Below, in pieces: positions 14,455 through 33,725 of a stretch of 64,000 bases of DNA. The notes beneath the pieces are model-generated. The model was not told the DNA's origin. It searched no databases and saw nothing but the letters and a program-made list of their open reading frames with translations. The DNA is from Candidatus Kaiserbacteria bacterium (GTDB lineage: Bacteria > Patescibacteriota > Minisyncoccia > Phycocordibacterales > UBA2100). The stretch lies in NCBI GenBank assembly GCA_016186695.1, contig JACPLC010000001.1, positions 109,718 through 173,717 on the forward strand, written 5' to 3'. Positions within the stretch are counted from its first letter, which is position 1. Every line of letters starts with the position of its first letter. The position numbers were made by a program, and so were the translations under genes.

Positions 14455-16167
14455 ATGCCCGCACCAGCAGCACAGAGCGTTGTCGGAGGGGCTCCGAGCC
14501 CATCGCTGAGTGCTCCGTTGCGCAGCCTCGGAGACAGCAAGGTGCCCTACGACGTGCTTCGCTACATCCCGCAGGAATCCGCGGAGCACTACAGGCTTGC
14601 GCCACTTAGCGTTACGGACGGTGTTCTCGAGGTGGGAATGGTTAGTCCGGACGACATAGGCGGCTTTGACGCGCTCAATTTCATCGCGCGCGGCACCGGG
14701 ATGCCCTTTAAGGTCTATCAGATCTCGCAGGCAGATTTCGACAGTATCTTGAGGATGTACAAAGGTTTGGGTGGGGACGTTGATAAGGCAATTACCGACC
14801 TGCAGACAGAGCAGAAAGAAACGCGAATTGCGGAGGGCGAAGCCGCACCTCTCGATCTCGGCGACCCGTCTCTCGTCCAGCAGGGATCGCTCGATAAAAA
14901 TATCCAGGAGGATGCGCCGACGATAAAAATCGTCTCAACGATTCTCCGGTACGCGATCGATGGCAAAGCTTCAGACATCCACATCGAGCCGCAGGCGCAC
15001 GGCGTGCGCGTGCGGTACCGCGTCGACGGCGATCTGCATACGAGCGTCGTCCTGCCGGCCGCGACACTTCGCCCCTTGATCGCTCGCGTTAAAGTGCTTG
15101 CGTCTATCCGGCTCGACGAACAGCGCAAGCCACAGGACGGCCGCTTTTCTGCCTCGATCGATGGCCGCGCCATCGACTTTCGCGTTTCAACGTTTCCCTC
15201 ATATCATGGGGAGAAGGTCGAGATCCGTATTCTTGACCGTGATCAGGGTTTTATTTCGCTCGATAAAATCGGATTTACCGAGCGCAACCTGCAATTGGTT
15301 CGTGAGGGTATTTCTCGTCCTCATGGTCTGATTCTTATTTCGGGGCCAACCGGCAGCGGCAAATCGACGACGCTCTACTCAATGCTTTCCGAGATGGATC
15401 GCGAGCACAAGAATGTGCTTTCACTCGAGGATCCTATCGAGTATTTCATCGACGGCGTGACGCAATCACAGGTGCGGCCGGAAATCGGGTACAGTTTCGC
15501 GAACGGCTTGAGGACGACCCTACGGCAGGATCCGGACATCATCATGGTCGGCGAGATCCGCGATGGCGAGACGGCGAAACTCGCGATACAGGCTGCGCTC
15601 ACGGGACACCTCGTGCTCTCAACAATCCACACGAACGACGCAGTCGGCACCATTCCGCGCCTCATCGACATGGGTGTGGAGCCCTATCTCATTCCGCCGG
15701 TTTTGATCGTCTCGATCGCGCAGCGTCTCGTGCGGACCCTTGCGGAAGATGGAGGTCAGGAAGTGGAGCTATCTCCCAGCGACAGGACAGCAATCGAAGC
15801 CGAGCTCTCATCGTTGCCTGCGAAGTATCGCTTTAAGATCCCGCAAAAAGTGTGGGAGCCCGTGCGAACGGCGACCTCTCCCACGGGACTACGAGGACGC
15901 ATGGCGGTATTTGAGGTTCTCGAAATGTCCCGCGAGATCGAGCGCATTATTCTCGACAATCCCGTCGAATCGCGTCTCTGGGATGCAGCCCGCGCAAGCG
16001 GCATGCTCACGATGCGCGAAGACGCGCTCATGAAAGCGTTTGGCAAACTCGTACCGTACTCGGAGGTGAACACACTTTCCACGCTTCTGGCGGGAGATGC
16101 TGAAGAAGCCGAAAAAGAAAAAACGAAGAAAGGAGCGAAGGCTGAAGGAACAGAACCAAACGTATGA
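14455..16167 (+). CDS. pilB: Type IV pilus assembly ATPase PilB (GspE family)
   Basis: N-terminal GSPII_E-N-like domain. Walker A GPTGSGKST. Asp box, Walker B and His box present. The ORF-track start at 14380 is likely upstream of the true ATG. Confidence 0.88.
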   Translation: MPAPAAQSVVGGAPSPSLSAPLRSLGDSKVPYDVLRYIPQESAEHYRLAPLSVTDGVLEVGMVSPDDIGGFDALNFIARGTGMPFKVYQISQADFDSILRMYKGLGGDVDKAITDLQTEQKETRIAEGEAAPLDLGDPSLVQQGSLDKNIQEDAPTIKIVSTILRYAIDGKASDIHIEPQAHGVRVRYRVDGDLHTSVVLPAATLRPLIARVKVLASIRLDEQRKPQDGRFSASIDGRAIDFRVSTFPSYHGEKVEIRILDRDQGFISLDKIGFTERNLQLVREGISRPHGLILISGPTGSGKSTTLYSMLSEMDREHKNVLSLEDPIEYFIDGVTQSQVRPEIGYSFANGLRTTLRQDPDIIMVGEIRDGETAKLAIQAALTGHLVLSTIHTNDAVGTIPRLIDMGVEPYLIPPVLIVSIAQRLVRTLAEDGGQEVELSPSDRTAIEAELSSLPAKYRFKIPQKVWEPVRTATSPTGLRGRMAVFEVLEMSREIERIILDNPVESRLWDAARASGMLTMREDALMKAFGKLVPYSEVNTLSTLLAGDAEEAEKEKTKKGAKAEGTEPNV

Positions 16168-16314
16168 CCCGGTAGTGAAATGTGCCTTAGGCTTACACAA
16201 ACTATGAAAACAAACAACAAACGTATCAAAAGCGCAACACGTGAGAGTTCGTCGCTCACGCCGCGGCAGCCATGCATGCGGGCCTGCCGCAAAGGCGCAT
16301 TCTACTAACCGGGT

Positions 16315-16722
16315 ATGACGGACGCAACGAAAGGGAACATCTTGTTCGTGGACGATGACAAGTTTTTGGCGGACATGTACGGTATGAAGTTCACCTCGGC
16401 GGGCTACACGGTGCAGTCATGTTTATCGGTTGCCGAAGCGCTCACTGCACTGAAATCGGGATTCGTGCCCGACGCAATTGTCTTCGACCTCACTATGCCG
16501 GAGCGCGACGGCTTCTCGTTTATCGAAGAGCTTTCGCAAGGAAAACTTGCACCCGCCGCGGCGCTCATCGCACTTACCAATCAAAGCGACCCCGCGGAGA
16601 AAACAAAGGCCGAACACTTAGGAGTCCATCGCTACATCGTGAAAGCGAGCATGATTCCGTCAGAGGTCGTGCAGGCTGTCGGGGAAGAGATAGCGAAGAG
16701 GAAGGGCGGCAAACGTTCGTAA
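16315..16722 (+). CDS. Stand-alone CheY-like response regulator receiver domain, embedded in the pilus locus
   Basis: Receiver motifs FVDDD, phospho-acceptor D in IVFDLTMP, and a conserved K. Confidence 0.75.
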   Translation: MTDATKGNILFVDDDKFLADMYGMKFTSAGYTVQSCLSVAEALTALKSGFVPDAIVFDLTMPERDGFSFIEELSQGKLAPAAALIALTNQSDPAEKTKAEHLGVHRYIVKASMIPSEVVQAVGEEIAKRKGGKRS

Positions 16723-16772
16723 GTTCGCACATCTAATTCACATCAATCCGAAATAGCGTCCGCATATCGGGG

Positions 16773-16778
16773 TATAAT
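16773..16778 (+). promoter_or_regulatory. TATAAT -10 hexamer 6 nt upstream of the pilT ATG
   Basis: Sequence ggTATAATcgcactATG, with no SD. Confidence 0.35.
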
Positions 16779-16784
16779 CGCACT

Positions 16785-17852
16785 ATGGCAGCAGACTACG
16801 CATCCACGCTCAAAAAATATATTAACGTGCTCGCGCACGAGGGCGGAAGTGATTTGCACTTCTCGGCGGGCGCGCATCCCACGATTCGTGCTTCCGGTAT
16901 CTTAGCGCCGATGCTCAAAGAGCCGCCGCTTTCGCCTGAAGACACCATGGGTTTTTTGAAAACGCTCATCTCTCCGGAACAGGAAAAGCGCTTTCTTGCC
17001 GACAAGGAAGTCGACTTTGCGTACGAGAGCGAAGACAAAAATCGCTTCCGCGGAAATGCCTTCTTTCAGCGGGGATCTGTTTCGATAGCGCTCCGTCTCA
17101 TCCCGAAACAGATCCGTACCGTTCAGGAGTTGAATCTTCCCGATGTGCTCACGACCTTCGCGCGGAAGACGCAGGGGTTTTTTCTCGTCGTTGGTCCTGT
17201 AGGTCAGGGAAAAACGACAACACTTGCCTCCCTCATCGAACTCATCAATACCGAACGCATGGAACACATCGTTACGATCGAGGATCCTATCGAGTACGTG
17301 TTCGAACCGAAGCAATCGCTCATCGACCAGCGGGAGGTGCGGATCGACACGAAAGATTTTGCGACCGCGCTCCAGTCTGCGTTCAGGCAGGACATCGATG
17401 TGCTTCTCGTTGGTGAGATGCGGGGACCGGAGACGATGGCTGCAGCGGTGACCGCGGCCGAAACCGGCCACCTCGTGTTCTCGACGATGCACACGAACGA
17501 CGCGGCGCAAACCGTCGATCGCATCATCGATACGTTTCCGGCTTCCCAGCAAGACCAAATCCGCCTTCAGCTTGCGGCATCTCTCGCGGGAATATTCTCT
17601 CAGCGTCTTGTCCCGCGTGTCTCGGGCGGCCTGATCCCCTCATATGAGCTTCTCGTCAACAATAAAGCTGTCGGGAACCTTATTCGAGAGCGGCGCACGC
17701 ACGAGATTCCGACCGTTATCGAAACCGGCTCTCAAGAGGGTATGATCGACATGAACCGGTCTCTTGCGGAATTGGTCGCACGTGGCGAGATTACCGTTGA
17801 GAGTGCCTACCAGTTTTCGCTCAATCCGAACGTATTGCAGAAATTACTCTAA
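16785..17852 (+). CDS. pilT: Twitching motility / pilus retraction ATPase PilT
   Basis: Walker A GPVGQGKTT, PilT-type His box, and the AIRNLIRE-like motif AVGNLIRE. Confidence 0.88.
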   Translation: MAADYASTLKKYINVLAHEGGSDLHFSAGAHPTIRASGILAPMLKEPPLSPEDTMGFLKTLISPEQEKRFLADKEVDFAYESEDKNRFRGNAFFQRGSVSIALRLIPKQIRTVQELNLPDVLTTFARKTQGFFLVVGPVGQGKTTTLASLIELINTERMEHIVTIEDPIEYVFEPKQSLIDQREVRIDTKDFATALQSAFRQDIDVLLVGEMRGPETMAAAVTAAETGHLVFSTMHTNDAAQTVDRIIDTFPASQQDQIRLQLAASLAGIFSQRLVPRVSGGLIPSYELLVNNKAVGNLIRERRTHEIPTVIETGSQEGMIDMNRSLAELVARGEITVESAYQFSLNPNVLQKLL

Positions 17853-17856
17853 AGGT

Positions 17857-19065
17857 ATGGCGCTCTTCACATACCGCGCAGTTGATCAGGAGGGAGCCGA
17901 ACGGGCGGGTACGATCGACGCAGTCAACGTTGATGTTGCTATTACGGCGCTGCAGCGGCGCGGCCTCGTCATTTCTTCCATTGTAACGGAAGGGGAGAAG
18001 GTAAGTGCGTGGACGCGCATTTCTTTTTTCGACCGTATCACGAATGCGGATATCGTGATGGTGAGCCGTCAGGTCACCACGCTCTTCGAAGCACAGGTTT
18101 CCGCACTGCGTGCGTTCCGTCTCCTTGCGTCAGAGGCGCGTACGCCCAAGCTCGCAGAGAAACTCTCCGCCGTCGCAAGCGACATCCAGAGCGGCTCCTC
18201 GATCTCGGCGGCGCTCTCGCGGCACCCGGACGTGTTTTCCCCCTTTTACGTCAACATGGTGCGTGCGGGCGAGGAGGCTGGCAAACTGGATGAGACGTTT
18301 TCGTTCCTTGCCGATTACCTCGATCGCAATTACGAGATTACCCAAAAAGCGAGGAACGCTCTCATCTATCCGGCCTTTATCATGACTACGTTTATCGTCG
18401 TGATGGGTCTTATGATGACACTCGTAATTCCCAACCTCGCGACGCTCCTTGAGGAGCTCGGACAGAATGTCCCGATTTATACCAAAATCGTGATCGGCAT
18501 CAGCACCTTCCTCACGCGCTACATATTGCTTATTCTGATTCTTCTTGCTGTCGCGGGGGTGTTTCTCTTTCGCTTTTACCGTACTGAGGTAGGACGCGAG
18601 ATGTTTAGCCGCGCACGCTTGCAAGTTCCTGCGATCGGCGAAATCTTCAAGAAGCTCTTTCTTTCGCGCGTTGCCGACAACCTCTCGACGATGCTCAAAA
18701 GCGGCGTGCAGATCCTTCGGGGACTTGAAATAACAGGTTCTGTCGTTGGCGATGCAGTCTACGAGAAGGTACTTGTCGCCGCGGCCATAGATGTGAAAGG
18801 AGGTCTTCCGGTATCAGAGGCGTTCCGGAAGCATCCGGAAATTCCAGGCATTGTCGTTGCTATGATTAAGATCGGAGAGGAGACGGGCAACATGGCCCAA
18901 GTCCTCGACACGATGGCGCGCTTTTACCGACGTGAGGTAAATAACGCCGTGGACACGCTGGTCGGCCTCATCGAGCCATTTATGATTGTGACACTTGCCG
19001 TCGGTGTCGCGATCCTCCTTGCCTCTGTGCTTCTTCCGATTTACAACATCGCATCTGGCTTTTAG
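17857..19065 (+). CDS. pilC: Type IV pilus inner-membrane platform protein PilC (GspF family)
   Basis: Two GspF repeats and three TM segments. About 400 aa. Confidence 0.85.
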   Translation: MALFTYRAVDQEGAERAGTIDAVNVDVAITALQRRGLVISSIVTEGEKVSAWTRISFFDRITNADIVMVSRQVTTLFEAQVSALRAFRLLASEARTPKLAEKLSAVASDIQSGSSISAALSRHPDVFSPFYVNMVRAGEEAGKLDETFSFLADYLDRNYEITQKARNALIYPAFIMTTFIVVMGLMMTLVIPNLATLLEELGQNVPIYTKIVIGISTFLTRYILLILILLAVAGVFLFRFYRTEVGREMFSRARLQVPAIGEIFKKLFLSRVADNLSTMLKSGVQILRGLEITGSVVGDAVYEKVLVAAAIDVKGGLPVSEAFRKHPEIPGIVVAMIKIGEETGNMAQVLDTMARFYRREVNNAVDTLVGLIEPFMIVTLAVGVAILLASVLLPIYNIASGF

Positions 19066-19102
19066 GCTATCCACACAAGATTTCAGAGCGCATTCCGTCT
19101 GC

Positions 19103-19108
19103 TATACT
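19103..19108 (+). promoter_or_regulatory. TATACT -10 hexamer 6 nt upstream of the pilin ATG
   Basis: Sequence gcTATACTaggtgcATG. Confidence 0.35.
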
Positions 19109-19114
19109 AGGTGC

Positions 19115-19630
19115 ATGAAAGATGTCCGAGGCCTTGCCCTCCGCCCGTCGAAGGGTTTTACCTTGATCGAATTGCTTGTCGTGATCGCCATCATCGGGAT
19201 CCTTTCATCGGTCGTTCTCGCATCTCTGAACAGCGCGAGGAAGAAAGGGAGAGACGCTCGCCGTATCGCAGACGTGAGGCAGTTGCAGCTTGCGCTCGAA
19301 CTTTACTACGACAAGTCCAACGCCTATCCGCAGGTCACCGATCTTGATTCCTCGACTCTCGTTTCTGACGGATTTCTCTCTGCCATTCCCCACGATCCGA
19401 GCGACCAGAGGGATTACTCATATGCATATACAACAAACGGCGGGGATTACCATATGGGCGCATCTCTCGAGGATACAAACAATTCGGCGAAGAATAGCGA
19501 CGCCGACTGTACGTCTGCCGCAGCAGGTTGCTTTACCGCTGCCGCAGCGGCCGGAGGATTCAACGGTGCTGATTCCGGAAAGTGCAATACGAATGATACG
19601 GGCACTCTCTGCTACGACGTGACGAGTTAA
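19115..19630 (+). CDS. Type IV pilin (major pilin, prepilin-type N-terminal cleavage/methylation domain)
   Basis: Class III signal KGFTLIELLVVIAIIGIL with cleavage after G. C-terminal Cys pairs. Confidence 0.85.
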   Translation: MKDVRGLALRPSKGFTLIELLVVIAIIGILSSVVLASLNSARKKGRDARRIADVRQLQLALELYYDKSNAYPQVTDLDSSTLVSDGFLSAIPHDPSDQRDYSYAYTTNGGDYHMGASLEDTNNSAKNSDADCTSAAAGCFTAAAAAGGFNGADSGKCNTNDTGTLCYDVTS

Positions 19631-19632
19631 TC

Positions 19633-19712
19633 GGAAGTCGCAGGGACGATTTATTGCCTGCGAAACTCGCTTCGCTCAAACAGTCCTCGTCAACAAATCG
19701 CACCTGCGACTT
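19633..19712 (+). repeat. Structured intergenic repeat family, copy 1 (between the pilin gene and pilD)
   Basis: Core CCTGCGAAACTCGCTTCGCTCAAACAGTCCTCG flanked by a perfect 12-bp outer stem GGAAGTCGCAGG/CCTGCGACTTCC. Homologous to the copies at 37402, 40284, 48881, 51811 and 57595. Confidence 0.7.
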
Positions 19713-19723
19713 CCTCAGGCGGA

Positions 19724-19729
19724 TATAAT
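19724..19729 (+). promoter_or_regulatory. TATAAT -10 hexamer 6 nt upstream of the pilD ATG
   Basis: Sequence ggaTATAATgcaaagATG. Confidence 0.35.
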
Positions 19730-19735
19730 GCAAAG

Positions 19736-21028
19736 ATGGGTGAAGCAATTTTTTTTGGTCTCTTTGGTCTCATTGTAGGAAGCTTTCTCAACGTTCTTAT
19801 TCTCCGGTGGGGTAAACAGCGTGTCACAGGCCGAAGCGCATGCGTTTCTTGCGGTGGGCGAATTGCATGGTATGACCTTATCCCTGTTATTTCGTGGATC
19901 CTCTTGCGCGGCCGTTGTCGCGCGTGCGGCGCAAAGATATCCATCCAATACGTGCTCGTAGAAGCAGGTACCGCGATACTCTTCGTGCTCATCGGACTAT
20001 CTTCGCTTCCACTTCTCACCCGTCTCGCCGCGCTCCCGATCGCGGCTCTCCTTGTTGCGATCGCGGTATACGATCTTCGTCACACCCTCATACCAGATGC
20101 GTGGGTCCTGACAGTTGCTGGGTTAGCGCTTCTTAGTTCGTTACTATCACTCGCAGGTCAGGAAACCTTGTTCGACGTCATCCTGACGCTTTTTTTTGGT
20201 CCTGTGGGAGGATCCCTCGTCGCACTTCCTCTTTTTGGATTTTGGTTTTTCTCGCACGGCACGTGGATGGGATTCGGCGATGTGAAGCTCGCGCTTGCTA
20301 TGGGGTGGCTCTTAGGGATAGTCAGCGGACTAGAGGCGCTCTTTCTCGCCTTCGTCCTCGGAGCGGCCATCGGTATTCCGCTCCTCTTTTTTTCTTCACG
20401 CGCTTGGGAGCTCATGCGGGCGCGATTTACCCCCACAGGAGCTTCGCAGAAGTTTCGTGGGAGGTTTACAATGAAAAGCGAGGTACCGTTCGGTCCGTTT
20501 CTCGTCGCGGCGACACTCATCATATGGCTTTCAAACATGCACGGTCTCGTTGAGAATCTTGCCTATGATGTCGCTCTCTCCGTTAGGCAGGCACAGGTGT
20601 ACGGCATTGCGGTGAGGCGATACGGTGCTACTAATTTCAGCATCGGCTACGGGATGCATTTTGCTATCGACAGTCCCACCACGTACGTGCTATTTGCCGA
20701 CGCGTTATCCGCCAACGGTCTCTATGATGGCTGTCCCGACTCGATTTCGTGCGAGCTGGTCGAATCTACCGACATACTCCGCGGCTACCACATCGCCGAT
20801 CTGTGCGCGACTGCAGGTGGCGGGGGAGGTGAAGTGTGCGGAGTGCAGAAACTCGATATTCTCTTCAAGCGGCCAGAACCCGATGCCTATATAAGTGCGA
20901 ACGGTGTGTCGGGAGTTGCGAACCCCGGAGCACTTCAAGAGCGCGGGCGCATCGTACTCGAATCGCCACGTGCGGATCGCATAAGCGTAATCGTTGAGGT
21001 GGCAGGGCAGATCGCAACGCAACCATAG
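19736..21028 (+). CDS. pilD: Prepilin peptidase (A24 family, PilD) fused to a C-terminal extension of about 165 aa of unknown function
   Basis: N-terminal zinc-binding CxxC...CxxC. Multi-TM A24 peptidase core with the GFGDVKL catalytic Asp region. A24 peptidases are usually 250 to 290 aa, whereas this ORF is 430 aa. Confidence 0.8.
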   Translation: MGEAIFFGLFGLIVGSFLNVLILRWGKQRVTGRSACVSCGGRIAWYDLIPVISWILLRGRCRACGAKISIQYVLVEAGTAILFVLIGLSSLPLLTRLAALPIAALLVAIAVYDLRHTLIPDAWVLTVAGLALLSSLLSLAGQETLFDVILTLFFGPVGGSLVALPLFGFWFFSHGTWMGFGDVKLALAMGWLLGIVSGLEALFLAFVLGAAIGIPLLFFSSRAWELMRARFTPTGASQKFRGRFTMKSEVPFGPFLVAATLIIWLSNMHGLVENLAYDVALSVRQAQVYGIAVRRYGATNFSIGYGMHFAIDSPTTYVLFADALSANGLYDGCPDSISCELVESTDILRGYHIADLCATAGGGGGEVCGVQKLDILFKRPEPDAYISANGVSGVANPGALQERGRIVLESPRADRISVIVEVAGQIATQP

Positions 21029-21030
21029 GT

Positions 21031-21603
21031 ATGGGGGACCGCGGCTTCACACTCATCGAGATGATAGTAGCAGTCGGGCTCTTTGCGGTTGTGATGCTTG
21101 TTTCGACAGCGGCGCTTCTTTCTCTCGTGGGCGCGAACCGCAAAGCACATGCCCTGCAATCGGTCATGAACAACTTTAGTGTCGCACTCGACGGCATGGT
21201 GCGGTCAGTCCGTATGGGTTCCGAATACCATTGTGGGGCAGGTGACATAACCACGCCCCAGTCATGCGAAGACGGTGATACGAAGCTCGCTTTCAAACCG
21301 TTTTGCGAAGAAGACTGCGATTCCCTCGAGAGGTGGGTATACGCGTATGACACGAACGGCACATTCTGCGGACAAGGGCGTCTGTGCAAGTCCGAGAACA
21401 ACGGGAACAATTACTATGCGGTTACTGCGGGAGACGTCTCGATCGACGACCTGACATTTTACGTCATCGGTACAACGCGGGGCGACACGATACAGCCAAA
21501 GGTTGTTGTGGCCGTGAGCGGTACCGCGGGAGGTAGTGATGTAAAAACGAGTACTACATTTTCGATACAAGCTACCGCCGTGCAGAGGATCTTGGACATA
21601 TGA
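21031..21603 (+). CDS. Pseudopilin / minor pilin (prepilin N-terminal methylation motif)
   Basis: GFTLIEMIVAVGLFAVV N-terminus. Confidence 0.75.
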   Translation: MGDRGFTLIEMIVAVGLFAVVMLVSTAALLSLVGANRKAHALQSVMNNFSVALDGMVRSVRMGSEYHCGAGDITTPQSCEDGDTKLAFKPFCEEDCDSLERWVYAYDTNGTFCGQGRLCKSENNGNNYYAVTAGDVSIDDLTFYVIGTTRGDTIQPKVVVAVSGTAGGSDVKTSTTFSIQATAVQRILDI

Positions 21604-22157
21604 AGAAGGGATTTACACTTATTGAGACGCTTGTTGCAGTTACAATCCTTTCGGTTGCGATTACAGCCCCGATGGCCTTGACCGCCAAGAGCCTTGCGGC
21701 CGCGTACTATGCGCGGGATCAGATCACCGCGTATCATCTTGCGCAGGAGGCGATCGAAGCGATACGTCATGCGCGCGACAACAACATCCTCACCAATGTC
21801 TTCGGCACTCATGCGGATCTTTTGGAGGGTATTCCGTCGACGACAGGCTCACCATTCACCGTGGACACTCGGGACGATTCGACGGCTCTCTGCGCGCCCG
21901 ATGGCTGTCCGCCACTGCAATCGAACGGCGAGCTATACGGATACAGACCGGGGTGCTCGATGCCGACTCTTGATTGCGGCACCGCAGAGGGGTGGGAAAA
22001 CTCTCGATTCACCCGCACGGTACGCGCGGAGTTTGTGACAGGAAGTTCGGACGAAGTCCGCATCTCGGTCGAAGTCGAATGGAGAACCGGCTCGTTCCAG
22101 ACGCGTTCGTTCACGATTTCGGAGAATCTCTACCGCTGGGTAGAGGAGATAGAATAG
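21600..22157 (+). CDS. Pseudopilin / minor pilin
   Basis: GFTLIETLVAVTILSVAI N-terminus. 4-nt overlap with the previous gene. Confidence 0.75.
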   Translation: MKKGFTLIETLVAVTILSVAITAPMALTAKSLAAAYYARDQITAYHLAQEAIEAIRHARDNNILTNVFGTHADLLEGIPSTTGSPFTVDTRDDSTALCAPDGCPPLQSNGELYGYRPGCSMPTLDCGTAEGWENSRFTRTVRAEFVTGSSDEVRISVEVEWRTGSFQTRSFTISENLYRWVEEIE

Positions 22158-22166
22158 TATGAAAAT

Positions 22167-22628
22167 ATGAAAGGGAGAAAAAGGGAAAAAGGGTTTACAC
22201 TGATGCTTGCGGCGCTTATCGCTTCCGTGACGCTTGCGCTCGGCACGTCCATCTTTGCGCTTGCCCAAAAGGAGCTCTCACTCTCATCGGTTGGCCGTGA
22301 TTCGCAGTTTGCCTTCTACGCGGCCGACACTGGTGCCGAGTGTGCGCTCTATTGGGACATACGATTCCAGCTCTTTCCCACGACAACACCGACCTCGAAG
22401 AATCTCACCTGCGACAACGAGGCGAAAACCACATCAGCTTCAAACGTCGACGGTGATATTATCTCCTCGTTCGAGTTTGAACCCAACGGGTACTGCGCGA
22501 AGGTAAGTGTCACAAAACGTGATACGAACCCGAGGACGAAGATTCACGTGGACGGCTACAACACGACATGCGCGAACATCCAATCGAGCTCCCATGCGCT
22601 TGAGCGCTCCGTCGATCTTAAGTACTGA
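22167..22628 (+). CDS. Pseudopilin / minor pilin
   Basis: KGFTLMLAALIASVTLAL N-terminus. Confidence 0.7.
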   Translation: MKGRKREKGFTLMLAALIASVTLALGTSIFALAQKELSLSSVGRDSQFAFYAADTGAECALYWDIRFQLFPTTTPTSKNLTCDNEAKTTSASNVDGDIISSFEFEPNGYCAKVSVTKRDTNPRTKIHVDGYNTTCANIQSSSHALERSVDLKY

Positions 22629-22638: not shown

Positions 22639-24977
<2,339 letters not shown>

Positions 24978-24987: not shown

Positions 24988-26412
24988 ATGAATCTTGATT
25001 CTTTAACAATTGCCGAAGCGCGTCGCGCTCTTGATGTCAAAGAGTATTCGGCGCTTGAGCTCACGGACGCGTATCTGGATGAGATTTCGAAACGTGATGG
25101 AGAAATCCACGCGTACCTCGAGGTGTGGGAAAAGTCTGCGCGGGAAGAAGCAAAAGCGGCGGATGCGCTTATCGCAAAAGGAGAATCGAAGCCGCTCACC
25201 GGAATTCCACTCGCATTTAAGGACAACATTCTGATAGAAGGACATACGGCGAGCGCTGGCTCGAAAATCCTTGAAAACTACAAAGCTTCCTACGATGCCA
25301 CGGTTATCAGTAAGCTGAAGGAGCACAACGCAGTCTTTCTCGGACGCACGAACTGTGACGAGTTCGCGCTCGGTAGTTCTACAGAAAACTCTGCATATGG
25401 TCCGACGAAGAATCCACACGATCTTTCGCGAGTGCCGGGCGGCACATCAGGCGGATCCACTGCCGCTGTTGCCGCAAACATGGCTCTCGGCGGCTTGGGA
25501 AGTGATACGGGCGGCTCGATACGACAGCCCTCTTCTCTCTGTGGTGTCGTGGGGATGAAGCCGACGTACGGATCGGTCTCAAGATACGGACTCATCGCTG
25601 CCGCTTCCTCGCTAGACCAGATCGGGAGTATCGGCAAAACGGTCGCTGATGCGAGGAGCATTTTCGAAGGCATTCGCGGGCACGATAAGCACGATAGCAC
25701 TTCGCTTCCTGATTCTTTTTTCAATGAGAAACGCACGGTAAAGAAAGTGATCGGCGTTCCGCGCGCGTTCTTGAAAGAGGGGAGTGACGCCGATGTACTC
25801 GCGGAATTCGAAAAGACGCTTGAGAACCTGCAATCGACCGGCTACGAAATACGCGATGTAGAGCTGCCAAACGTGCCATATTCGCTCGCCGTCTACTACA
25901 TCATCAATCCGGCGGAGGTCTCGACCAATCTTGCGCGCTTCGACGGCATTCGCTACGGGCTTTCTGTTCCAGCCGGCGATATCCAGAGCGTGTATTCAAA
26001 AACACGCGGCGCGGGATTTGGCCCAGAAACACGGCGTAGAATTCTCGTCGGAACATTTGTGCTCTCCGCTGGTTATGCGGATGCGTACTACCGAAAGGCG
26101 CGCGCGGTGCGCGAGTTGATACGTGATGATTTCAAGCGCGCATTCGAATCAGTCGATGCGATCGCTATGCCGACTTCGCCGACACCGGCCTTCAAGATAG
26201 GGGAAAAGTCGGATGACCCGCTCGCCATGTACGCTGCAGACATTTTCACCGTTCCGGTCAATCTCGCGGGAGTTCCGGCTATTTCCGTGCCCTCGGGCAT
26301 GGTCCCGCGTGAAGGTAAAAATCTACCCGTCGGATTTCAGATTATTGCGCCGCACGGAGGAGAAGACGCACTGTTCACGGTTGGGGAAGATGTCGAAAAG
26401 GGCAGGGGGTAA
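24988..26412 (+). CDS. gatA: Glutamyl-tRNA(Gln) amidotransferase subunit A (amidase signature family)
   Basis: Amidase signature GGTSGGSTAAVAA. Ser-cisSer-Lys triad region. About 474 aa. Confidence 0.88.
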   Translation: MNLDSLTIAEARRALDVKEYSALELTDAYLDEISKRDGEIHAYLEVWEKSAREEAKAADALIAKGESKPLTGIPLAFKDNILIEGHTASAGSKILENYKASYDATVISKLKEHNAVFLGRTNCDEFALGSSTENSAYGPTKNPHDLSRVPGGTSGGSTAAVAANMALGGLGSDTGGSIRQPSSLCGVVGMKPTYGSVSRYGLIAAASSLDQIGSIGKTVADARSIFEGIRGHDKHDSTSLPDSFFNEKRTVKKVIGVPRAFLKEGSDADVLAEFEKTLENLQSTGYEIRDVELPNVPYSLAVYYIINPAEVSTNLARFDGIRYGLSVPAGDIQSVYSKTRGAGFGPETRRRILVGTFVLSAGYADAYYRKARAVRELIRDDFKRAFESVDAIAMPTSPTPAFKIGEKSDDPLAMYAADIFTVPVNLAGVPAISVPSGMVPREGKNLPVGFQIIAPHGGEDALFTVGEDVEKGRG

Positions 26413-26429: not shown

Positions 26430-27113
26430 ATGGAGAACACGCTCATCGGGGCTTTTCCGGAGGCGTTCAGTTTTTTGGGCGATCTGCTTTTTCGCTGGGT
26501 ACCTGCGACGGTAATTGCTGTTTTGAATATTAGTCCCTCGTCTCCCTTTGCCAATCTCGAACAGCCGATCACTGCATGGAATGTGCCAATCCTGCTCGCG
26601 CAAGCATCAGGGCCGACGGGGTATGAATCACTCCTCAAGGGATGGTTTGTCTTTTCGTTTCTTACGCTGGTCGGCTCGCTTCCATTTCTCGCACTCATTC
26701 TCTACTGCTGGACGCGCATCTTCCAAATACGGCGACGCGAGTATCGCGCGTTTCGCGCAGCACAGCGCACCGTCGTATCGCAGGATATTCCGCGCACGCA
26801 GCTGCGCTGGAATCGAGTTATCGACCAGTCCAACAGTTCCAATCCCGAAGGCTGGCGTCTCGCAATTCTCGAAGCAGACATTATGCTCAACGAGCTTCTG
26901 GACGTGCAGGGCTACAAGGGCGAGACGATTGCAGAAAAGATGAAACAGGTCGACCGCGCGAACTTTCACTCGATCGATGATGCGTGGGAAGCGCACAAAA
27001 TCCGCAATCGCATTGTGCACGAAGGCACGGCACATGAGCTTTCGCATCGCGAAGTTCGGCGTGTTGTCGCTCTCTACGAGCGAGTATTCAAAGAGTTCAA
27101 GTATATCGAATAA
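26430..27113 (+). CDS. Membrane-anchored protein with a C-terminal HEPN-like domain (RNxxxH motif)
   Basis: N-terminal third has three hydrophobic helices. C-terminal region carries KIRNRIVHEG, which matches the Rx4-6H / RNxxxH HEPN nuclease motif. No other recognised domain. Confidence 0.45.
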   Translation: MENTLIGAFPEAFSFLGDLLFRWVPATVIAVLNISPSSPFANLEQPITAWNVPILLAQASGPTGYESLLKGWFVFSFLTLVGSLPFLALILYCWTRIFQIRRREYRAFRAAQRTVVSQDIPRTQLRWNRVIDQSNSSNPEGWRLAILEADIMLNELLDVQGYKGETIAEKMKQVDRANFHSIDDAWEAHKIRNRIVHEGTAHELSHREVRRVVALYERVFKEFKYIE

Positions 27114-27151
27114 ACGCAAAAATTCCGCTTTCGCGGAATTTTGCATCTCGT

Positions 27152-27223
<72 letters not shown>

Positions 27224-27263
27224 TCTGTGCACTGTACTACAAAGAAAAGTCGGTAGCAATTTT

Positions 27264-27452
27264 TTAGTGGCCGAGTGCGGTGAGCACGACTTCCGTGAGC
27301 GAAACGGCAACGAATGTTGCAAGCGCGAGGAGGAACAATCTCCAATCGAGCGACGTAATGATCGAACCGAAACCGTAGGCGAGAAATCCAAGTGCGACAA
27401 ACCACAGCACGGAATTAAATGCGAGGATCGTTGTCCAGAAGCGTGTGGACAT
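27264..27452 (-). CDS. Hypothetical small membrane protein (62 aa)
   Basis: Two hydrophobic helices. No similarity recognised. Could be spurious. Confidence 0.25.
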   Translation of the reverse strand: MSTRFWTTILAFNSVLWFVALGFLAYGFGSIITSLDWRLFLLALATFVAVSLTEVVLTALGH

Positions 27453-27515: not shown

Positions 27516-27589
27516 GTCGGGGTAGCTCAGCTGGTTAGAGCGGACGTTTCATAAGCGTCAGGTCGTGGGATCGTAGCCCACCCCCGACA
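27516..27589 (+). tRNA. tRNA-Met (anticodon CAT), elongator-like
   Basis: Cloverleaf with acceptor GTCGGGG/CCCCGAC, D-arm GCTC...GAGC, anticodon stem GACGT/GCGTC and loop TTCATAA. T-loop ATCGTAG carries an A54:U58 swap, a covariation of the usual T54:A58. Confidence 0.7.
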
Positions 27590-27680
27590 CACAGCGGACA
27601 CACAGCGTGGCGGTTGCGGAAGGCATATGTATCCACGTAAGTGGTTAGTGCCATGTCTTGTCACGTGGTAGTATAGTTTT

Positions 27681-28442
27681 GTGGCTCCAATGTATCGTAA
27701 AGTAAGACGTGATTTTTTCCGCATCTGGTCCGCGGAAATGGCATACGTTCTTGGTTTCTTTGCAGCCGATGGCAATATGATCCGGAACAGGCGAGGCGCG
27801 TATTTCGTCAGCTTTTACTCGAATGACAGGCGGTTGCTCGTCGATATCCGACATGTACTCGACTCCTCACACAGGATTGGAACGAAGAAACATTTTCCTT
27901 CGCGTAGGACCGCATACCAACTTCAAATCGGGAGCAAAGAAATCTTTGAGGATTTGTTGTCATTGGGATTTACTCCAAATAAGAGTACATCACTTCGGCT
28001 GCCGCGTATTCCGAGGTCGCTCGCGAAGCATTTCGTGCGAGGCTACTTTGATGGAGACGGCAATGTGTATTTCAAAAGGCACTTCGCGAAGGATCGGGGT
28101 AAATACCGGTGGATATTTCAAAGCAGGTTTACATCGGGCAGTCGTGTGTTTCTGGAAGATCTCCATACCGTTCTTCGGAGCAACGGAATTCTTGGCGGAT
28201 CGCTCATCAAGAAAGAGCGCGGCCACGATTTGCTATTTAGTCATCATGATAGCGTTGCTTTATTCCGTCTTATGTACAATAATATCGGCGATTGCGTATA
28301 TCTTAGGAGAAAGTACTTGCTATTCCGACACGCAGTCGACTCATTGTATGGGGGCGTAGCTCAGCCCGGTTCAGAGCGTCCGCTTGTCACGCGGAAGGTC
28401 GCGGGTTCAAATCCCGTCGCTCCCGCATCACCGAAAAACTGA
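27681..28442 (+). CDS. Double-motif LAGLIDADG homing endonuclease, free-standing; functional protein probably ends near 28349
   Basis: Two LAGLIDADG motifs, LGFFAADGN and VRGYFDGDGNV, about 100 aa apart. Lower GC (about 47%) than the flanks. From 28350 the frame reads through tRNA-Asp, so the last 30 codons probably translate the tRNA. Confidence 0.75.
   Translation: MAPMYRKVRRDFFRIWSAEMAYVLGFFAADGNMIRNRRGAYFVSFYSNDRRLLVDIRHVLDSSHRIGTKKHFPSRRTAYQLQIGSKEIFEDLLSLGFTPNKSTSLRLPRIPRSLAKHFVRGYFDGDGNVYFKRHFAKDRGKYRWIFQSRFTSGSRVFLEDLHTVLRSNGILGGSLIKKERGHDLLFSHHDSVALFRLMYNNIGDCVYLRRKYLLFRHAVDSLYGGVAQPGSERPLVTRKVAGSNPVAPASPKN
28350..28425 (+). tRNA. tRNA-Asp (anticodon GTC)
   Basis: Acceptor GGGGGCG/CGCTCCC (one G:U pair). 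D-arm GCTC...GAGC. Anticodon stem TCCGC/GCGGA with loop TTGTCAC. T-arm GCGGG TTCAAAT CCCGT. Confidence 0.8.
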
Positions 28443-28962: not shown

Positions 28963-29616
28963 ATGAAGACTGCGCAGGATATTTACGCTGAATACAACAT
29001 CATGCCCTCGCTGCAGCTCCATCAGCTGCGGGTAGCGGCGGCCGCGAAGTTAATTTGCGACAATTTGAAAGTCCCGGTCAATACGGGCGATGTCGTTCTT
29101 GCGTGCCTTTTTCACGACATGGGCAACATTTTGAAATTTGATCTTGGGAAAACGTTTCCTGAATTTCTCGAACCAGAAGGGGCAGAGTATTGGAGGCAAG
29201 CGAAGGCGGAATTCTTATATCGATATGGCGACAACGCGCACAAGGCGAACATCGCGATTGGGAGAGAGATCGGATTAGACAAGAGGATCGTCGAGCTGAT
29301 CGATAGCATAAGTTTTTCGAATATTGCAAACATTGTTGCAAATGCTTCGTTCGAGCAAAAAATCAGTGAGTATGCCGACGATAGGGTAGGTCCGTACGGG
29401 GTCTTGCCACTGAAAGAACGTCTTGCAGAGGCTCGCGCACGCTATATCGAGAGCGGAAAAACGTACTATACGGCTGAAGGATTCGACAAACTTTCGCGCT
29501 TGGTATATGAACTTGAGCGACAAATCTTTGCGCACACGAGTGTCCGACCCGAAGATCTCAACGACGCAGCCGTCGAGTCTATCATTGAGCAATTGAGAAC
29601 CTACACGGTAGCGTGA
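28963..29616 (+). CDS. HD-domain phosphohydrolase family protein
   Basis: H...HD motif (LACLFHDMGN) and downstream metal-ligand residues. Confidence 0.7.
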   Translation: MKTAQDIYAEYNIMPSLQLHQLRVAAAAKLICDNLKVPVNTGDVVLACLFHDMGNILKFDLGKTFPEFLEPEGAEYWRQAKAEFLYRYGDNAHKANIAIGREIGLDKRIVELIDSISFSNIANIVANASFEQKISEYADDRVGPYGVLPLKERLAEARARYIESGKTYYTAEGFDKLSRLVYELERQIFAHTSVRPEDLNDAAVESIIEQLRTYTVA

Positions 29617-30058: not shown

Positions 30059-31138
30059 TCAAGATACCTTGCCGGAGATCAATACATTGTCTCCGAATCT
30101 CATGACAGAGACATCGTTCAAGCGGGATGCGCCGTGGAGCGTCCGCACACCCCTACCTCCGATCGTCGAGGCATCCTTTCCGCCGATGAGGACCGGAGCA
30201 TAGAATGCGTAGACTCGATCGAGAAGCCTTTCATCAAGAAAGCTGCCGATAGTCTTTCCACCCCCTTCCACGAGAATACTCACGATGTTTCGTTTTCGGA
30301 GTTCTCTGAGAAGTCCCCGAAGCGGAATTCCCTTGCCTTTGAATAGGAGAATTGTACTACCGCGTTTCTCCAAAGCCATTTTTTTGCGTCGTGGGGCGCC
30401 GAAAGATGCCGCGATCAGTACGTTCTGGTCGCGGAGCACTTTGGCGGAGAGGGGAATGCGAAGGTCCGGATCGAGAATAATTCGCAGGGGGTCTCTTTTC
30501 CCCTGTGCACGTACGCCCAAGTGCGGGTCGTCAGAGAGAATAGTCCTGATTCCGACGAGCACCGCTTGGTAGCTTCCACGGAGACTTCGTGCATACGCGC
30601 GCGCCTCTTTATTCGTTATCCACTTCGAATCTCCCGTACGTGTTGAGAGTTTGCCATCGAGACTCGCGGCATACTTGAGCCCAATAAAGGGTCGTTTTTT
30701 CCGGTGGAAGGTGAAAAATGCCTCGTTCAGCGCTCTCGCTTCGTTCGCGCACGCGCCAACGCGCACGGGAATACCTGCCTTGCGCAGTCTCGTAATCCCT
30801 TTTCCGTTCACGCGTGGGTTGGGGTCTTTCGTCGCGCAGACGACGCGTTTGATTCCCGCTTGTATGATCGCGTCAACGCACGGCGGTGTTTTGCCGAAAT
30901 GTGCGCACGGTTCCAGGTTTACATATAGTGTTGCACCTCGCGCTCCCTCTCCCGCTTCCGAAAGCGCCTCGATTTCGGCGTGCGATTTTCCTGCGCGCTT
31001 GTGGAAACCACGTGCGGTAACGCGTGTGCCTTTCACGATTACCGCTCCAACCATCGGGTTGGGGTTCGTCCAACCCGCACCTTTTTTGGCAAGGCGGAGC
31101 GCTTCATGCATGAGGGTTTCGTCGAATCGCGGGGCCAT
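30059..31138 (-). CDS. ribD: Bifunctional riboflavin biosynthesis deaminase/reductase (diaminohydroxyphosphoribosylaminopyrimidine deaminase and 5-amino-6-(5-phosphoribosylamino)uracil reductase)
   Basis: CMP/dCMP deaminase zinc motif HAEIEAL...EPCAHFGKTPPC. C-terminal reductase domain. Confidence 0.88.
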   Translation of the reverse strand: MAPRFDETLMHEALRLAKKGAGWTNPNPMVGAVIVKGTRVTARGFHKRAGKSHAEIEALSEAGEGARGATLYVNLEPCAHFGKTPPCVDAIIQAGIKRVVCATKDPNPRVNGKGITRLRKAGIPVRVGACANEARALNEAFFTFHRKKRPFIGLKYAASLDGKLSTRTGDSKWITNKEARAYARSLRGSYQAVLVGIRTILSDDPHLGVRAQGKRDPLRIILDPDLRIPLSAKVLRDQNVLIAASFGAPRRKKMALEKRGSTILLFKGKGIPLRGLLRELRKRNIVSILVEGGGKTIGSFLDERLLDRVYAFYAPVLIGGKDASTIGGRGVRTLHGASRLNDVSVMRFGDNVLISGKVS

Positions 31139-31140
31139 GT

Positions 31141-32367
31141 TTAGACGCGGAGCAGGCGATGCCCCAATTTCCGCTTCTTTGTTCTCAGGTATTTCACGTT
31201 TGTCCGGCGCGGCTCCACTTCGAGCGGAATAGTGGCGCTGATAGATGTGCCGTATCCCGAGAGCTGCCGCTCTTTTTCGGGATTATTCGTGAGGAGACGT
31301 ATGTCGTGTACGCCGATGTCTTCGAGGATGTGCGCGGCCGCTTCATAGGTACGTCCGTCGGCGGAAAAGCCAAGTGCCTCGTTTGCTTCCACCGTATCGA
31401 AGCCCCTGTCCTGCAGTGCGTAGGCTTTTATTTTGTTCCCAAGTCCGATCCCGCGACCTTCCTGACTCGCGTACACGATGACACCCGAACCCTCCTTACC
31501 GATCCTGCGCATGCTCTCCTTGAGCTGCTCTCCGCAGTCGCAGCGGCGCGAAAAGAGCGTATCGCCCGTGAGGCACTGCGAGTGTACGCGCACGAGCGTA
31601 TTCTTCCGTGGTTTGCCGAGGACGAGCGCAGCGTGTTCGCGTCCGTCGAGAACGGATTTATATGCGGTAACAGCGAATGTTCCATAGGCGGTGGGAAGTG
31701 TCGAAGAGGAGACGCGAACCACGCTCGAGCTGTGTGTCGCGGGCGGCAGGGGATGTTGCTCGAGGTAGCGCACGAGGTCCTCTACCGAGATTATTTTTAT
31801 CTGAAGCGTCCGCGCAAGCCGGAATAGCTCGTGACCTTTTGCCATGCGACCGCTTGTGCCGACGATTTCGCACAAGACTCCCGCTGGTGTTCTTCCCGCG
31901 AGCCGCGCGAGGTCCACCGCTGCTTCTGTATGTCCCCGGCGTTCGAGCAGACCGCCTCTTCGCGCGACGAGTCCGAACACGTGTCCGGGTTTGACGATGT
32001 CTTTCGGTTTCGATCGCGGGTCTACGAGCACGCGGATTGTCTTTGCCCGATCATGCGCGGAAACGCCGGTCGTGATTCCATGCGCGGCGCTCACGGAGAC
32101 GGTAAAGCCCACACCGGTTTTTTCTTTGTTCTCGTCTCTCGGTACCATAAGCGGAAGATGCAAACGACGCGCCTGCGCCTCCGTGATCGCGGCACACACA
32201 AGTCCGCCAGCGCGCTTGATCATCGTTCTCAGTGTGGCGGGAGTTACCGTCTCCGCGGCGATGAAAAGATCGCCCTCGTTTTCGCGTTTGGGACTGTCGA
32301 CGATGATAAGCATCTTGCCTTTTCTCACATCGGCGATTGCTTCCGGTATCGTGCTGAATCTGTTCAT
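31141..32367 (-). CDS. ribBA: Bifunctional 3,4-dihydroxy-2-butanone-4-phosphate synthase / GTP cyclohydrolase II
   Basis: DHBP synthase N-terminal half, then a GTP cyclohydrolase II half with CxCxxxC-like zinc ligands. Start chosen at MNRFSTIPEAI so that it overlaps the ribH stop by ATGA. The ORF-track start at 32541 lies inside ribH. Confidence 0.85.
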   Translation of the reverse strand: MNRFSTIPEAIADVRKGKMLIIVDSPKRENEGDLFIAAETVTPATLRTMIKRAGGLVCAAITEAQARRLHLPLMVPRDENKEKTGVGFTVSVSAAHGITTGVSAHDRAKTIRVLVDPRSKPKDIVKPGHVFGLVARRGGLLERRGHTEAAVDLARLAGRTPAGVLCEIVGTSGRMAKGHELFRLARTLQIKIISVEDLVRYLEQHPLPPATHSSSVVRVSSSTLPTAYGTFAVTAYKSVLDGREHAALVLGKPRKNTLVRVHSQCLTGDTLFSRRCDCGEQLKESMRRIGKEGSGVIVYASQEGRGIGLGNKIKAYALQDRGFDTVEANEALGFSADGRTYEAAAHILEDIGVHDIRLLTNNPEKERQLSGYGTSISATIPLEVEPRRTNVKYLRTKKRKLGHRLLRV

Positions 32368-32807
32368 AGCTCGGAGAGGGTTCGTATCATCGCCAAGGCC
32401 GATGTAGCAGCTTCGACGCCCTTGTTCTCTTTCTTTCTTGTTGCGCGATCGAGCGCGTCTTCGAGTCGGTAGACAGCGAGCACTTCGAAGATGACCGGTA
32501 TTTCGTATGTTAAGGAAACATCCATACATCCCCGCGCACATTCATTGGCGATTTGCTCGAAATGGTAGGTCTCACCCTTCACGATCGCTCCGAAGACGAT
32601 GAGTGCATCATACGTGCGTTTTTTCGCGATGCTCTTTGCGAGGAGCGGTATCTCAAGTGATCCCGGAACCCTGAAGACGTCGATCTGCGATCTTCTGATG
32701 CCTTTGTGCACAAGTGTATTGATACAGTTTCGCTCAAGCGCGCGCGCGACCTCCATTCGGAAGGAGCTGCTGATAATTGCAATACGGATGTCTTTTGTGT
32801 TCTTCAT
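32364..32807 (-). CDS. ribH: 6,7-dimethyl-8-ribityllumazine synthase
   Basis: Lumazine synthase fold of about 147 aa, conserved through GAIVKGETYHFE. Confidence 0.88.
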   Translation of the reverse strand: MKNTKDIRIAIISSSFRMEVARALERNCINTLVHKGIRRSQIDVFRVPGSLEIPLLAKSIAKKRTYDALIVFGAIVKGETYHFEQIANECARGCMDVSLTYEIPVIFEVLAVYRLEDALDRATRKKENKGVEAATSALAMIRTLSEL

Positions 32808-33388
32808 GCGTGAGTTTTGAGAAGTTTCTCGAGGTATTTGCCGATAACATCGACCTCGATGTTGACGGGGTCACCCGGTTTGAGCGCGTGCATCGATGTC
32901 GTACGCCACGTATGCGGAATAATGCCGACGGTGAAATGGTTTTGACCGGCGCTCATTACCGTGAGCGAAACGCCGTTGACCGCGATCGATCCTTTCCCGA
33001 CGACATACTTGGAAAGCGTCCGGGGAATCGAAAATCTCAACACCCGATCTTCTTTTTGCCGGTCGATGCGCGCTACGCGTGCGCTTATGTCCACGTGTCC
33101 CTGAACGAGGTGGCCCGAGAGGAATGTGTTCGGCGTAACCGGCAGTTCGAGGTTGACCACAGAGCCTCGGAAGAGCTTCCCGAGATTTGTCCGCACGTTC
33201 GTCTCCGACATTATGTCGGCGGTAAACGTATTTGGACGGCGTCCGACGACGGTGAGGCACACGCCCTCTACGGCAACACTTGTTCCGATCTGTAGTTTTC
33301 CGCAGAAGCCTCGCGTGGCTGAAATTGTCAGACGTGTTTTGTCTGCATTCTTGACTGTTCCTGTGTGTGAAATAATTCCACTGAACAT
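32804..33388 (-). CDS. ribE: Riboflavin synthase alpha subunit
   Basis: Two lumazine-binding repeats, each starting MFTGI/MFSGI-like. 194 aa. Confidence 0.85.
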   Translation of the reverse strand: MFSGIISHTGTVKNADKTRLTISATRGFCGKLQIGTSVAVEGVCLTVVGRRPNTFTADIMSETNVRTNLGKLFRGSVVNLELPVTPNTFLSGHLVQGHVDISARVARIDRQKEDRVLRFSIPRTLSKYVVGKGSIAVNGVSLTVMSAGQNHFTVGIIPHTWRTTSMHALKPGDPVNIEVDVIGKYLEKLLKTHA

Positions 33389-33394: not shown

Positions 33395-33548
33395 AACCCC
33401 GCTGCTTCGGGGTTATGCGCTCCGCTCGAAAGAGCGGTCTTCCTTCTTTTATCCCGACTGTACGGTCGGTCGCGGGATCTCACCGCAGTCGTGTCCCGAC
33501 TTTTGTCAGGACTCGTGGACTCGCCCCTCGAGAGGAGCTCTACCACCG
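33395..33548 (-). ncRNA. FMN riboswitch (RFN element) with intrinsic terminator, upstream of ribE
   Basis: Minus-strand sequence ...AGGGGCGAGTCCACGAGTCCTGACAAAAGTCGGGAC...GATCCCGCGACCGACCGTACAGTCGGGATAAAAGAAGGAAG matches conserved RFN blocks (for example CCGACAGTGAAAGTCTGGATGGGAGAAGGA). Followed by hairpins CCGCTCTTTCGAGCGG and CCCCGAAGCAGCGGGG plus a T-tract that abuts the ribE ATG. Confidence 0.8.
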
Positions 33549-33725
33549 ATTGGGACTTTCCGCCAATCTGGCGGATCACCCAAACCCCGAAGGAAATGTA
33601 AGTATACCGCTCGCTTCAACGAAAGCCAACCGTTATACTTTCGAAATGCAGAGCAAAGAAACGATAGCGGCTATGGTGCTTCTTTTTGCGATGTATAAGG
33701 TAGCTAAACTCAATCGCGAGAAAAG

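Follow-up and report, generated by a model that had tools for sequence, protein, structure and literature searches.

A Paceibacteria family of membrane-anchored, predicted HEPN endoribonucleases encoded directly after gatC-gatA

Described HEPN systems and the locus in Kaiserbacteria

To our knowledge, bacterial HEPN RNases are known almost solely as weapons: toxins, abortive-infection (Abi) proteins and CRISPR effectors. Here we describe a predicted HEPN protein, anchored in the membrane, that is encoded directly after gatC and gatA in a stretch of 64,000 nucleotides of a Candidatus Kaiserbacteria genome (assembly GCA_016186695.1, contig JACPLC010000001.1, positions 109,718 to 173,717), to which we refer as the window. 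The proteins closest to it in architecture and concept were presented by Anantharaman et al. in 2013 (PMC3710099, section 15), who described three bacterial membrane-associated HEPN groups, one of which joins an Abi2/Swt1-type HEPN domain to a single conserved transmembrane (TM) helix. These groups, like our protein, combine one or several TM segments with a cytoplasmic, apparently active HEPN domain, and it was proposed that they cut RNA at the membrane's inner face, possibly in a stimulus-dependent way (PMC3710099). The likeness is one of architecture. The groups were found in Vibrio, Salmonella and Planctomyces, carry an N-terminal WP-signature TM domain, a globular helical domain or a Zn-ribbon, and are described without a Patescibacteria family, a linkage to gatCA or SH3b ectodomains.

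Other described systems resemble the protein in some of its traits. The closest solved structures are those of the toxins of HEPN-MNT (type VII) modules (SO_3166, PDB 5yep; 7ae2; 8xdj), at 7-12% identity. However, these toxins are soluble and have an adjacent gene for an AMPylating MNT antitoxin, whereas our protein is membrane-anchored, has no MNT gene and shows the distribution of a core gene. Among Pfam families, the most frequent and best-scoring match is HEPN_Swt1 (the Swt1-like/Abi2 clade), and the R-N-x-x-A-H style of the motif is found in both. The known bacterial Swt1-like members occur in restriction-modification or Abi contexts, while the present family occupies the gatCA operon. 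The KEN domain of Ire1 and RNase L, as well as C6orf70, exemplify membrane-tethered RNases of the HEPN superfamily with a variable segment on the sensor side and gating by dimerisation (PMC3710099). This is an analogy only, because our protein is bacterial, lacks a kinase and has a HEPN domain that is not circularly permuted, and most members of its family have almost no domain on the sensor side. A further functional analogy is offered by RNase Y and membrane-associated RNase E, with their N-terminal anchor, helical stalk, cytoplasmic endoribonuclease domain and housekeeping gene. Yet the catalytic fold of RNase Y (KH and HD) is unrelated to HEPN, and Pfam scans found no KH or HD domain here. 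We came across no relevant paper when searching the literature for a HEPN family in Patescibacteria, also called the candidate phyla radiation (CPR), or for RNase Y in Parcubacteria. What is new in the present family is its lineage, its behaviour as a core gene, its linkage to gatCA and its variants with SH3b ectodomains.

In the window, the gene closes a compact block, which comprises the following features:

22669..24684, + strand: ligA, NAD-dependent DNA ligase, which overlaps gatC by 4 nucleotides and is a usual, not a constant, part of the conserved block
24681..24977, + strand: gatC (PF02686, synteny), the constant upstream operon partner
24988..26412, + strand: gatA, amidase (PF01425, E=7.6e-142)
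26430..27113, + strand: open reading frame (ORF) of 227 amino acids with an ATG start, the membrane-anchored predicted HEPN protein, at the end of the block
27119..27142, no strand assigned: perfect palindromic hairpin AAAATTCCGC-(N4)-GCGGAATTTT, 6 nucleotides past the stop codon of the HEPN gene

The ATG lies 17 nucleotides after the stop codon of gatA, and no promoter-like site was seen between the two genes in the window. This start codon is correct, because the N-terminus MENTLIGAFPEAF is common to homologues at 82-88% identity. The hairpin was called on the minus strand but, being a palindrome, is identical on the plus strand; it forms a bidirectional terminator-like site, at which the operon would end. 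The GC content of the gene is that of its neighbours, without compositional anomaly. The gene would be the last of a gatC-gatA(-gatB) operon and be co-transcribed with it. We think it probable that it is the Kaiserbacteria-type orthologue of an inner-membrane HEPN family found across the Paceibacteria, that is, a vertically inherited core gene encoding a predicted endoribonuclease.

HEPN domain, membrane anchor and family variants

The protein can be divided, in N-terminal to C-terminal order, into these parts:

26466..26531, + strand: residues 13-34, probable first TM helix (TM1) with a subfamily-specific F-x-W-[VI]-P signature (Kyte-Doolittle 1.48; two-TM relatives)
26532..26645, + strand: residues 35-72, predicted to be a short loop outside the cytoplasm, in place of which positional orthologues have at most about 500 amino acids of SH3b-like repeats
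26646..26714, + strand: residues 73-95, definite TM helix (Kyte-Doolittle 2.34; conservation)
26715..26780, + strand: residues 96-117, basic juxtamembrane stalk helix RIFQIRRREYRAFRAAQR
26793..27095, + strand: residues 122-222, predicted HEPN domain
26871..26879, + strand: E148-A-D150, conserved acidic residues of helix 2, such as are expected close to the active site of a HEPN domain (D150 invariant or nearly so, E148 in at least 90%)
27003..27020, + strand: R192-N193-R-I-V-H197, Rx4H motif, predicted to be catalytic, where helix 3 ends (conservation, model)

An earlier reading of the window, made from the sequence only (hereafter the sequence-only reading), had proposed a C-terminal HEPN domain on account of an RNxxxH motif in KIRNRIVHEG. 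The motif is present as claimed (residues 190-199, nucleotides 26997-27026, with R192-N193-x3-H197) and is conserved across the alignments of homologues. Taken alone it is weak evidence, because plain Rx4H is common by chance in the ORFs of the window (34 occurrences in 83 crude ORFs, 0.31 expected per 227 amino acids); the chance expectation for RNxxxH is 0.0096 per 227 amino acids. It rises above chance because of its conservation. H189, R192, N193, H197 and G199 are invariant both in 33 homologues (49-87% identity) and in 112 more distant relatives (about 31-47% identity). Among 149 representatives of clusters at 50% identity, R192 and N193 are found in 147, the remaining two rows being gapped, while H189, H197 and G199 range from 144 to 147, with H197 at 144. 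The conserved A185-W186-E187-A188-H189 stands before the motif and the invariant G199 after it, and the polar residue right after the conserved arginine is N193, as expected for the HEPN superfamily. Hence, the R and the H, whose lack of conservation would have counted against that reading, are in fact conserved.

The predicted topology points in the same direction. The helices of the domain are H1 (122-134), H2 (139-160), an insert helix (167-173), H3 (182-201) and H4 (206-222), and the stretch from R192 to H197 lies within H3, just before the loop 202-205. HEPN domains carry Rx4-6H where helix 3 ends, and acidic residues in helix 2 (PMC3710099, sections 6 and 7), a placement matched by the motif and by E148 and D150, which provides the topological line of evidence for HEPN. 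The model of the domain alone, built from 63 sequences, has a pLDDT of 95.5 and a pTM of 0.88. A comparison with the PDB by Foldseek gave no match at E<=0.001, the top one being the HEPN protein 2hsb (E=0.87), and searches of the PDB with the sequence and with a profile gave no meaningful match.

The comparison with Pfam, proposed with the sequence-only reading, gave a divided answer. The window protein has no match to HEPN_Swt1 (PF18731) at E<=10. This family is matched, always weakly and below its cut-off, by 15 of the 33 homologues and 28 of the 112 relatives (E<=0.01 for the latter) when they are scanned singly, and the best of these matches spans profile positions 19-110 of 115. The weak PADLOC matches of family members are mostly to models that bear HEPN domains (CARF_HEPN, RT-HEPN, Cas13a). 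Considering the intact and conserved motif, the helix topology and these weak but consistent matches, three independent lines (structure, topology and sequence) agree, and the prediction of a C-terminal HEPN domain is supported.

The same reading described the N-terminal third as three hydrophobic helices. AlphaFold indeed models helices at 8-31, 49-59 and 62-117. However, only residues 73-91 exceed the Kyte-Doolittle threshold for TM segments, residues 13-34 are borderline, and residues 49-59 form a short amphipathic helix. Homologues indicate that the subfamily of the Kaiserbacteria type has two TM helices and the short forms one. In TM1, W23 and P25 are conserved among the 33 close homologues. 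We considered equating TM1 with the TM domain that bears the WP signature in the DUF4145 TM-HEPN group, and rejected this since the wider family does not conserve F-x-W-[VI]-P and there is no adjacent WP.

The definite TM helix is better conserved than a passive anchor would require. Among the 112 relatives, position 79 is S, A, T or G in all and position 83 is S, T, A or G in 105, which makes a small-xxx-small pattern, formed by Thr79 and Ser83 in the window protein; G89 is found in 91 (the window protein has L), Y92 is invariant, and R96 is R or K in 107. Such a specific pattern goes beyond mere anchoring and points to helix-helix packing. The helix is followed by the strongly basic RIFQIRRREYRAFRAAQR, from which the positive-inside rule places the C-terminal domain in the cytoplasm, and the model has a low-confidence hinge (residues 114-119) after the stalk. 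The tethering to the membrane that had been claimed for the protein is thus well founded.

The protein has 874 close homologues, and the profile of its TM-HEPN core retrieves at least 5,961 sequences; this core is likewise present in 2,555 clusters at 50% identity. Wherever the source name is informative, it is Kaiserbacteria, Paceibacteria or the Parcubacteria group, and all annotations read "hypothetical protein", bar one automatic label that is evidently spurious. What is conserved as a unit is the HEPN domain together with the stalk and the last TM helix (profile positions about 75-230), and the median length in the sampled set is 227 amino acids. Three architectures can be told apart. Short forms (185-200 amino acids) have an N-terminal segment of about 30 residues, one TM helix and the HEPN domain. 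The forms of the Kaiserbacteria type, including the window protein, have two TM helices and an outside loop of about 38 residues. Long forms (350-700 amino acids) have an N-terminal TM helix, 2-6 SH3b-like repeats (Pfam SH3_3) with the consensus G-x-V-x-x-GP-x4-G-x-RYWYVDF-x-x-GPDGWV, and the TM-HEPN core. The latter are represented by the proteins P0158, P0185, P0221 and P0241 and by two located genes (locus L166, 2510-4333; locus L167, 6001-7404). Both of these genes stand directly after gatC-gatA, with a gap of 2 nucleotides or an overlap of 1, and are therefore positional orthologues. The ectodomains are lineage-specific additions outside the conserved core.

Gene order and neighbouring genes

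The gene has a fixed position and is vertically inherited across a bacterial class. One genome per GTDB species was scanned with strict patterns, which found 258 species, and 80 loci were kept. In these, the order ligA-gatC-gatA-HEPN gene is almost universal, and the downstream side is variable. A crude gene caller recovered the HEPN gene in 70 of the 80 loci, and gatA precedes it in nearly all. The order gatC-gatA-HEPN gene is also found in relatives of about 40% identity on long contigs and in the SH3b long forms, while ligA is not upstream of the block in L166. In the reverse test, we took 80 metagenome loci chosen by gatA alone, 64 of which extend at least 400 nucleotides past this gene. 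The HEPN gene follows gatA directly and on the same strand in 60 of the 64; the four exceptions have just 431-705 nucleotides of sequence downstream of gatA. The position after gatA is kept while identity to the window protein declines gradually from 88% to about 30%. No relatives were found in 2.9 million viral contigs, and no nucleotidyltransferase of the NTP_transf (MNT) family in the annotated neighbourhoods of the gene.

The possibility that the protein replaces GatB was rejected, because one locus (L046) has the order gatA-gatB-HEPN gene, with gatB at 4625-5929. This gatB was identified with a GatB sequence of B. subtilis as the query (40% identity over 477 amino acids). The gene hence goes along with the gatCAB operon rather than standing in for gatB. 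In the other loci, gatB was not found within about 6 kb (4 kb for those selected by gatA), and it is absent from the whole window. This indicates that gatB was split from gatCA in most of these genomes, and that the HEPN gene stayed. A possible paralogue of the gene in the window (tblastn E=0.015, 2879-3025) turned out to be unrelated, as the ORF has no RNxxxH or other resemblance.

Downstream of the hairpin, the window contains:

27152-27224, - strand: tRNA-Met (CAT)
27516-27590, + strand: tRNA-Met (CAT)
27681-28442, + strand: LAGLIDADG_3 homing-endonuclease ORF (E=1.9e-13)
28350-28426, + strand: tRNA-Asp

The tRNA genes and the homing endonuclease are located beside the HEPN gene, without an obvious partner gene, as the sequence-only reading had described. 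Seen across loci, this proximity is no evidence for a mobile patch. The region is variable except for the frequent tRNA-Met (CAT), and the presence of the LAGLIDADG gene there is not conserved. In 70 of 122 related loci, the first tRNA that ARAGORN identified within 1.5 kb downstream has the CAT anticodon, 45 times on the plus strand and 25 times on the minus strand, at a median of 59 nucleotides past the stop codon of the HEPN gene. The trio of the window (two tRNA-CAT and one tRNA-Asp) recurs in about 15 loci. A classification of the downstream tRNA-CAT genes by a mismatch at 1:72 was dropped, since this criterion also flagged tRNA-Asp, and a large cluster of downstream ORFs was an artefact of spurious ORFs across tRNA genes. 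In the window, the tRNA-Met copy on the minus strand has an A1xA72 mismatch (initiator-like), and both tRNA-Met genes have unusual T-loops (TGCAATT and ATCGTAG). The LAGLIDADG_3 ORF runs for 77 nucleotides through the entire tRNA-Asp gene before its stop codon, so that either its true end is earlier or it overlaps with tRNA-Asp. Other LAGLIDADG genes occur downstream in the distant loci L081, L083 and L084, and are not sequence-related neighbours.

A small ORF of 62 amino acids with two hydrophobic helices lies at 27264-27452 on the minus strand of the window, convergent to the HEPN gene, and has no Pfam match. It was found by tblastn in 39 related loci (27-90% identity), always on the strand opposite to the HEPN gene and 0.15-3 kb downstream of it. 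Judging from this conservation, it is a real gene for a small membrane protein, and could be an unrecognised partner or a mere syntenic neighbour. Between the tRNA genes, the window also has a gene for an HD-domain protein (28963-29616, plus strand; PF01966, E=2.5e-6), which recurs downstream of the HEPN gene in L007, L018, L028, L037 and L048.

Two other gene groups of the window were noted on either side. Directly upstream of ligA there is a type IV pilus-like cluster (11684-22628), in which a pseudopilin (21600-22157) was confirmed by Pfam (N_methyl motif). Reading of the ORF sequences alone identified a pilM-like gene (11684-12832), a prepilin peptidase-like gene (19736-21028) and the remaining pseudopilins. 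The pseudopilin-ligA junction is kept in many related loci, and L166 has pilin genes downstream instead. At 33437-33598 on the minus strand, a flavin mononucleotide (FMN) riboswitch (72.3 bits) precedes a riboflavin biosynthesis operon on the same strand, whose rib genes (about 30059-33388) were identified from their ORF translations only.

Predicted activity and alternative explanations

HEPN active sites form across a dimer, and cleave RNA without metal to give 2',3'-cyclic phosphate ends (PMC3710099). It is from such general knowledge of HEPN proteins (PMC3710099) that we infer RNase activity, dimerisation and a role for tethering in the present family. According to the explanation that we favour, two copies of the protein would pair via the conserved TM helix (small-xxx-small and the invariant Tyr92) and the stalk. 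This pairing would unite two HEPN domains into the kind of composite endoribonuclease site, independent of metal, that HEPN dimers typically have, and the enzyme would cut RNA at the membrane's inner face and leave 2',3'-cyclic phosphate ends. By analogy with RNase Y, tethering would limit the access to substrates. Hints as to the latter come from the link to the amidotransferase operon and from the frequent downstream tRNA-Met (CAT), which make tRNA or membrane-proximal mRNA the leading candidates.

Several points weigh against this explanation. The window protein has no match in single-sequence scans with Pfam, NCBIfam or PADLOC, and the best HEPN_Swt1 match of any relative (P0290, 26.1 bits) is under the gathering cut-off of 27.5 bits, which leaves the family outside formal membership. 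The acidic motif of HEPN domains typically has the form Ex3[KR] and lies near the catalytic motif in space; this form is absent here, although E148 and D150 in helix 2 are conserved. The pairing through the TM helix is proposed from conservation. Finally, the status of core gene was judged from loci and not from whole genomes, and a conserved gene order in the streamlined genomes of CPR bacteria may in part reflect inheritance rather than functional coupling.

An alternative that keeps the RNase but gives it another trigger is a signalling protein comparable to Ire1, in which a cue at the envelope or surface would drive dimerisation through a ligand, switch on the HEPN RNase and reprogramme RNA stability. 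The idea, which has been put forward for other TM-HEPN groups (PMC3710099, section 15), agrees with the dependence of HEPN activity in general on the geometry of the dimer and with the conserved packing residues of the TM helix, and we retain it because of the positional orthologues after gatC-gatA that carry 2-6 extracellular SH3b-like repeats. We nevertheless regard it as unlikely, since most members, including the minimal type found in the window, have just about 30 residues or a loop of about 38 residues outside, which leaves scant room for a sensor. There is also no kinase or other relay domain, and the ectodomains are lineage-specific and lie outside the conserved core. A bolder version of the favoured explanation, which we find rather doubtful, would make the protein an essential housekeeping endoribonuclease of the whole class, coupled to tRNA-dependent transamidation and gated from outside by SH3b domains in some lineages. 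It might then act in cleavage or quality control of tRNA at the membrane, on mischarged Glu-tRNAGln or Asp-tRNAAsn or on a tRNA with the CAU anticodon; alternatively, it might be the main decay-initiating RNase of the lineage, in the role of RNase E or RNase Y.

The remaining explanations dispense with the housekeeping RNase. A HEPN domain that is catalytically silent, and that would bind RNA or nucleotides or serve as a scaffold, for example to tether GatCAB or tRNA to the membrane, is improbable: non-catalytic HEPN domains typically lose Rx4-6H (PMC3710099), whereas here R192 and N193 never vary, H197 does so in few sequences at most, and the acidic residues of helix 2 are conserved across thousands of sequences. 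The sequence-only reading had considered a one-gene Abi or toxin module, that is, a HEPN toxin tethered to the membrane and encoded beside tRNA and homing-endonuclease genes, and, as an equal possibility, an uncharacterised housekeeping protein of RNA processing. For the former, with these neighbouring genes taken as a mobile patch, it can be said that most prokaryotic HEPN proteins have their role in conflict systems, that the closest solved structures include toxins of HEPN-MNT modules, that there are weak PADLOC matches to the CARF_HEPN, RT-HEPN and Cas13a models, and that tRNA genes and a LAGLIDADG gene are nearby. It is largely refuted by the distribution, and we hold it to be very improbable. 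The comparison of neighbourhoods shows that the homologues consistently belong to a housekeeping operon: they follow gatA in almost every related locus and in 60 of the 64 selected by gatA, at an unchanged position from 88% down to about 30% identity (31% in the comparison of gatC-gatA neighbourhoods). There is no adjacent gene for an MNT or antitoxin-like protein, no relative in the set of 2.9 million viral contigs and no departure from the native GC content. The window protein itself has no PADLOC match, those of its relatives are weak and mostly reflect HEPN-bearing models, and the LAGLIDADG neighbour is not conserved. The housekeeping alternative suits this evidence better. Lastly, the domain might be a generic four-helix bundle with a chance R-x4-H and no HEPN at all, as the frequency of plain Rx4H, the Foldseek result and the lack of a significant PDB sequence match could suggest; in view of the conservation of the motif, this is scarcely credible.

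The family has an intact catalytic motif in the setting of a core gene, in ultra-small and mostly uncultured bacteria. Should it prove active, it would represent a kind of housekeeping or signalling RNase undescribed in bacteria, and one of the CPR's numerous conserved membrane proteins labelled "hypothetical" would gain a function. There is no Pfam or NCBIfam model for the family, so that defining it would help to annotate thousands of genomes better. The SH3b-bearing variants provide a natural test of the 2013 proposal that links surface signals to RNA cleavage. Finally, if the essential role coupled to transamidation, with gating from outside in some lineages, were true, the family would be a bacterial counterpart of the Ire1 type and a rare housekeeping use of a fold of conflict systems.
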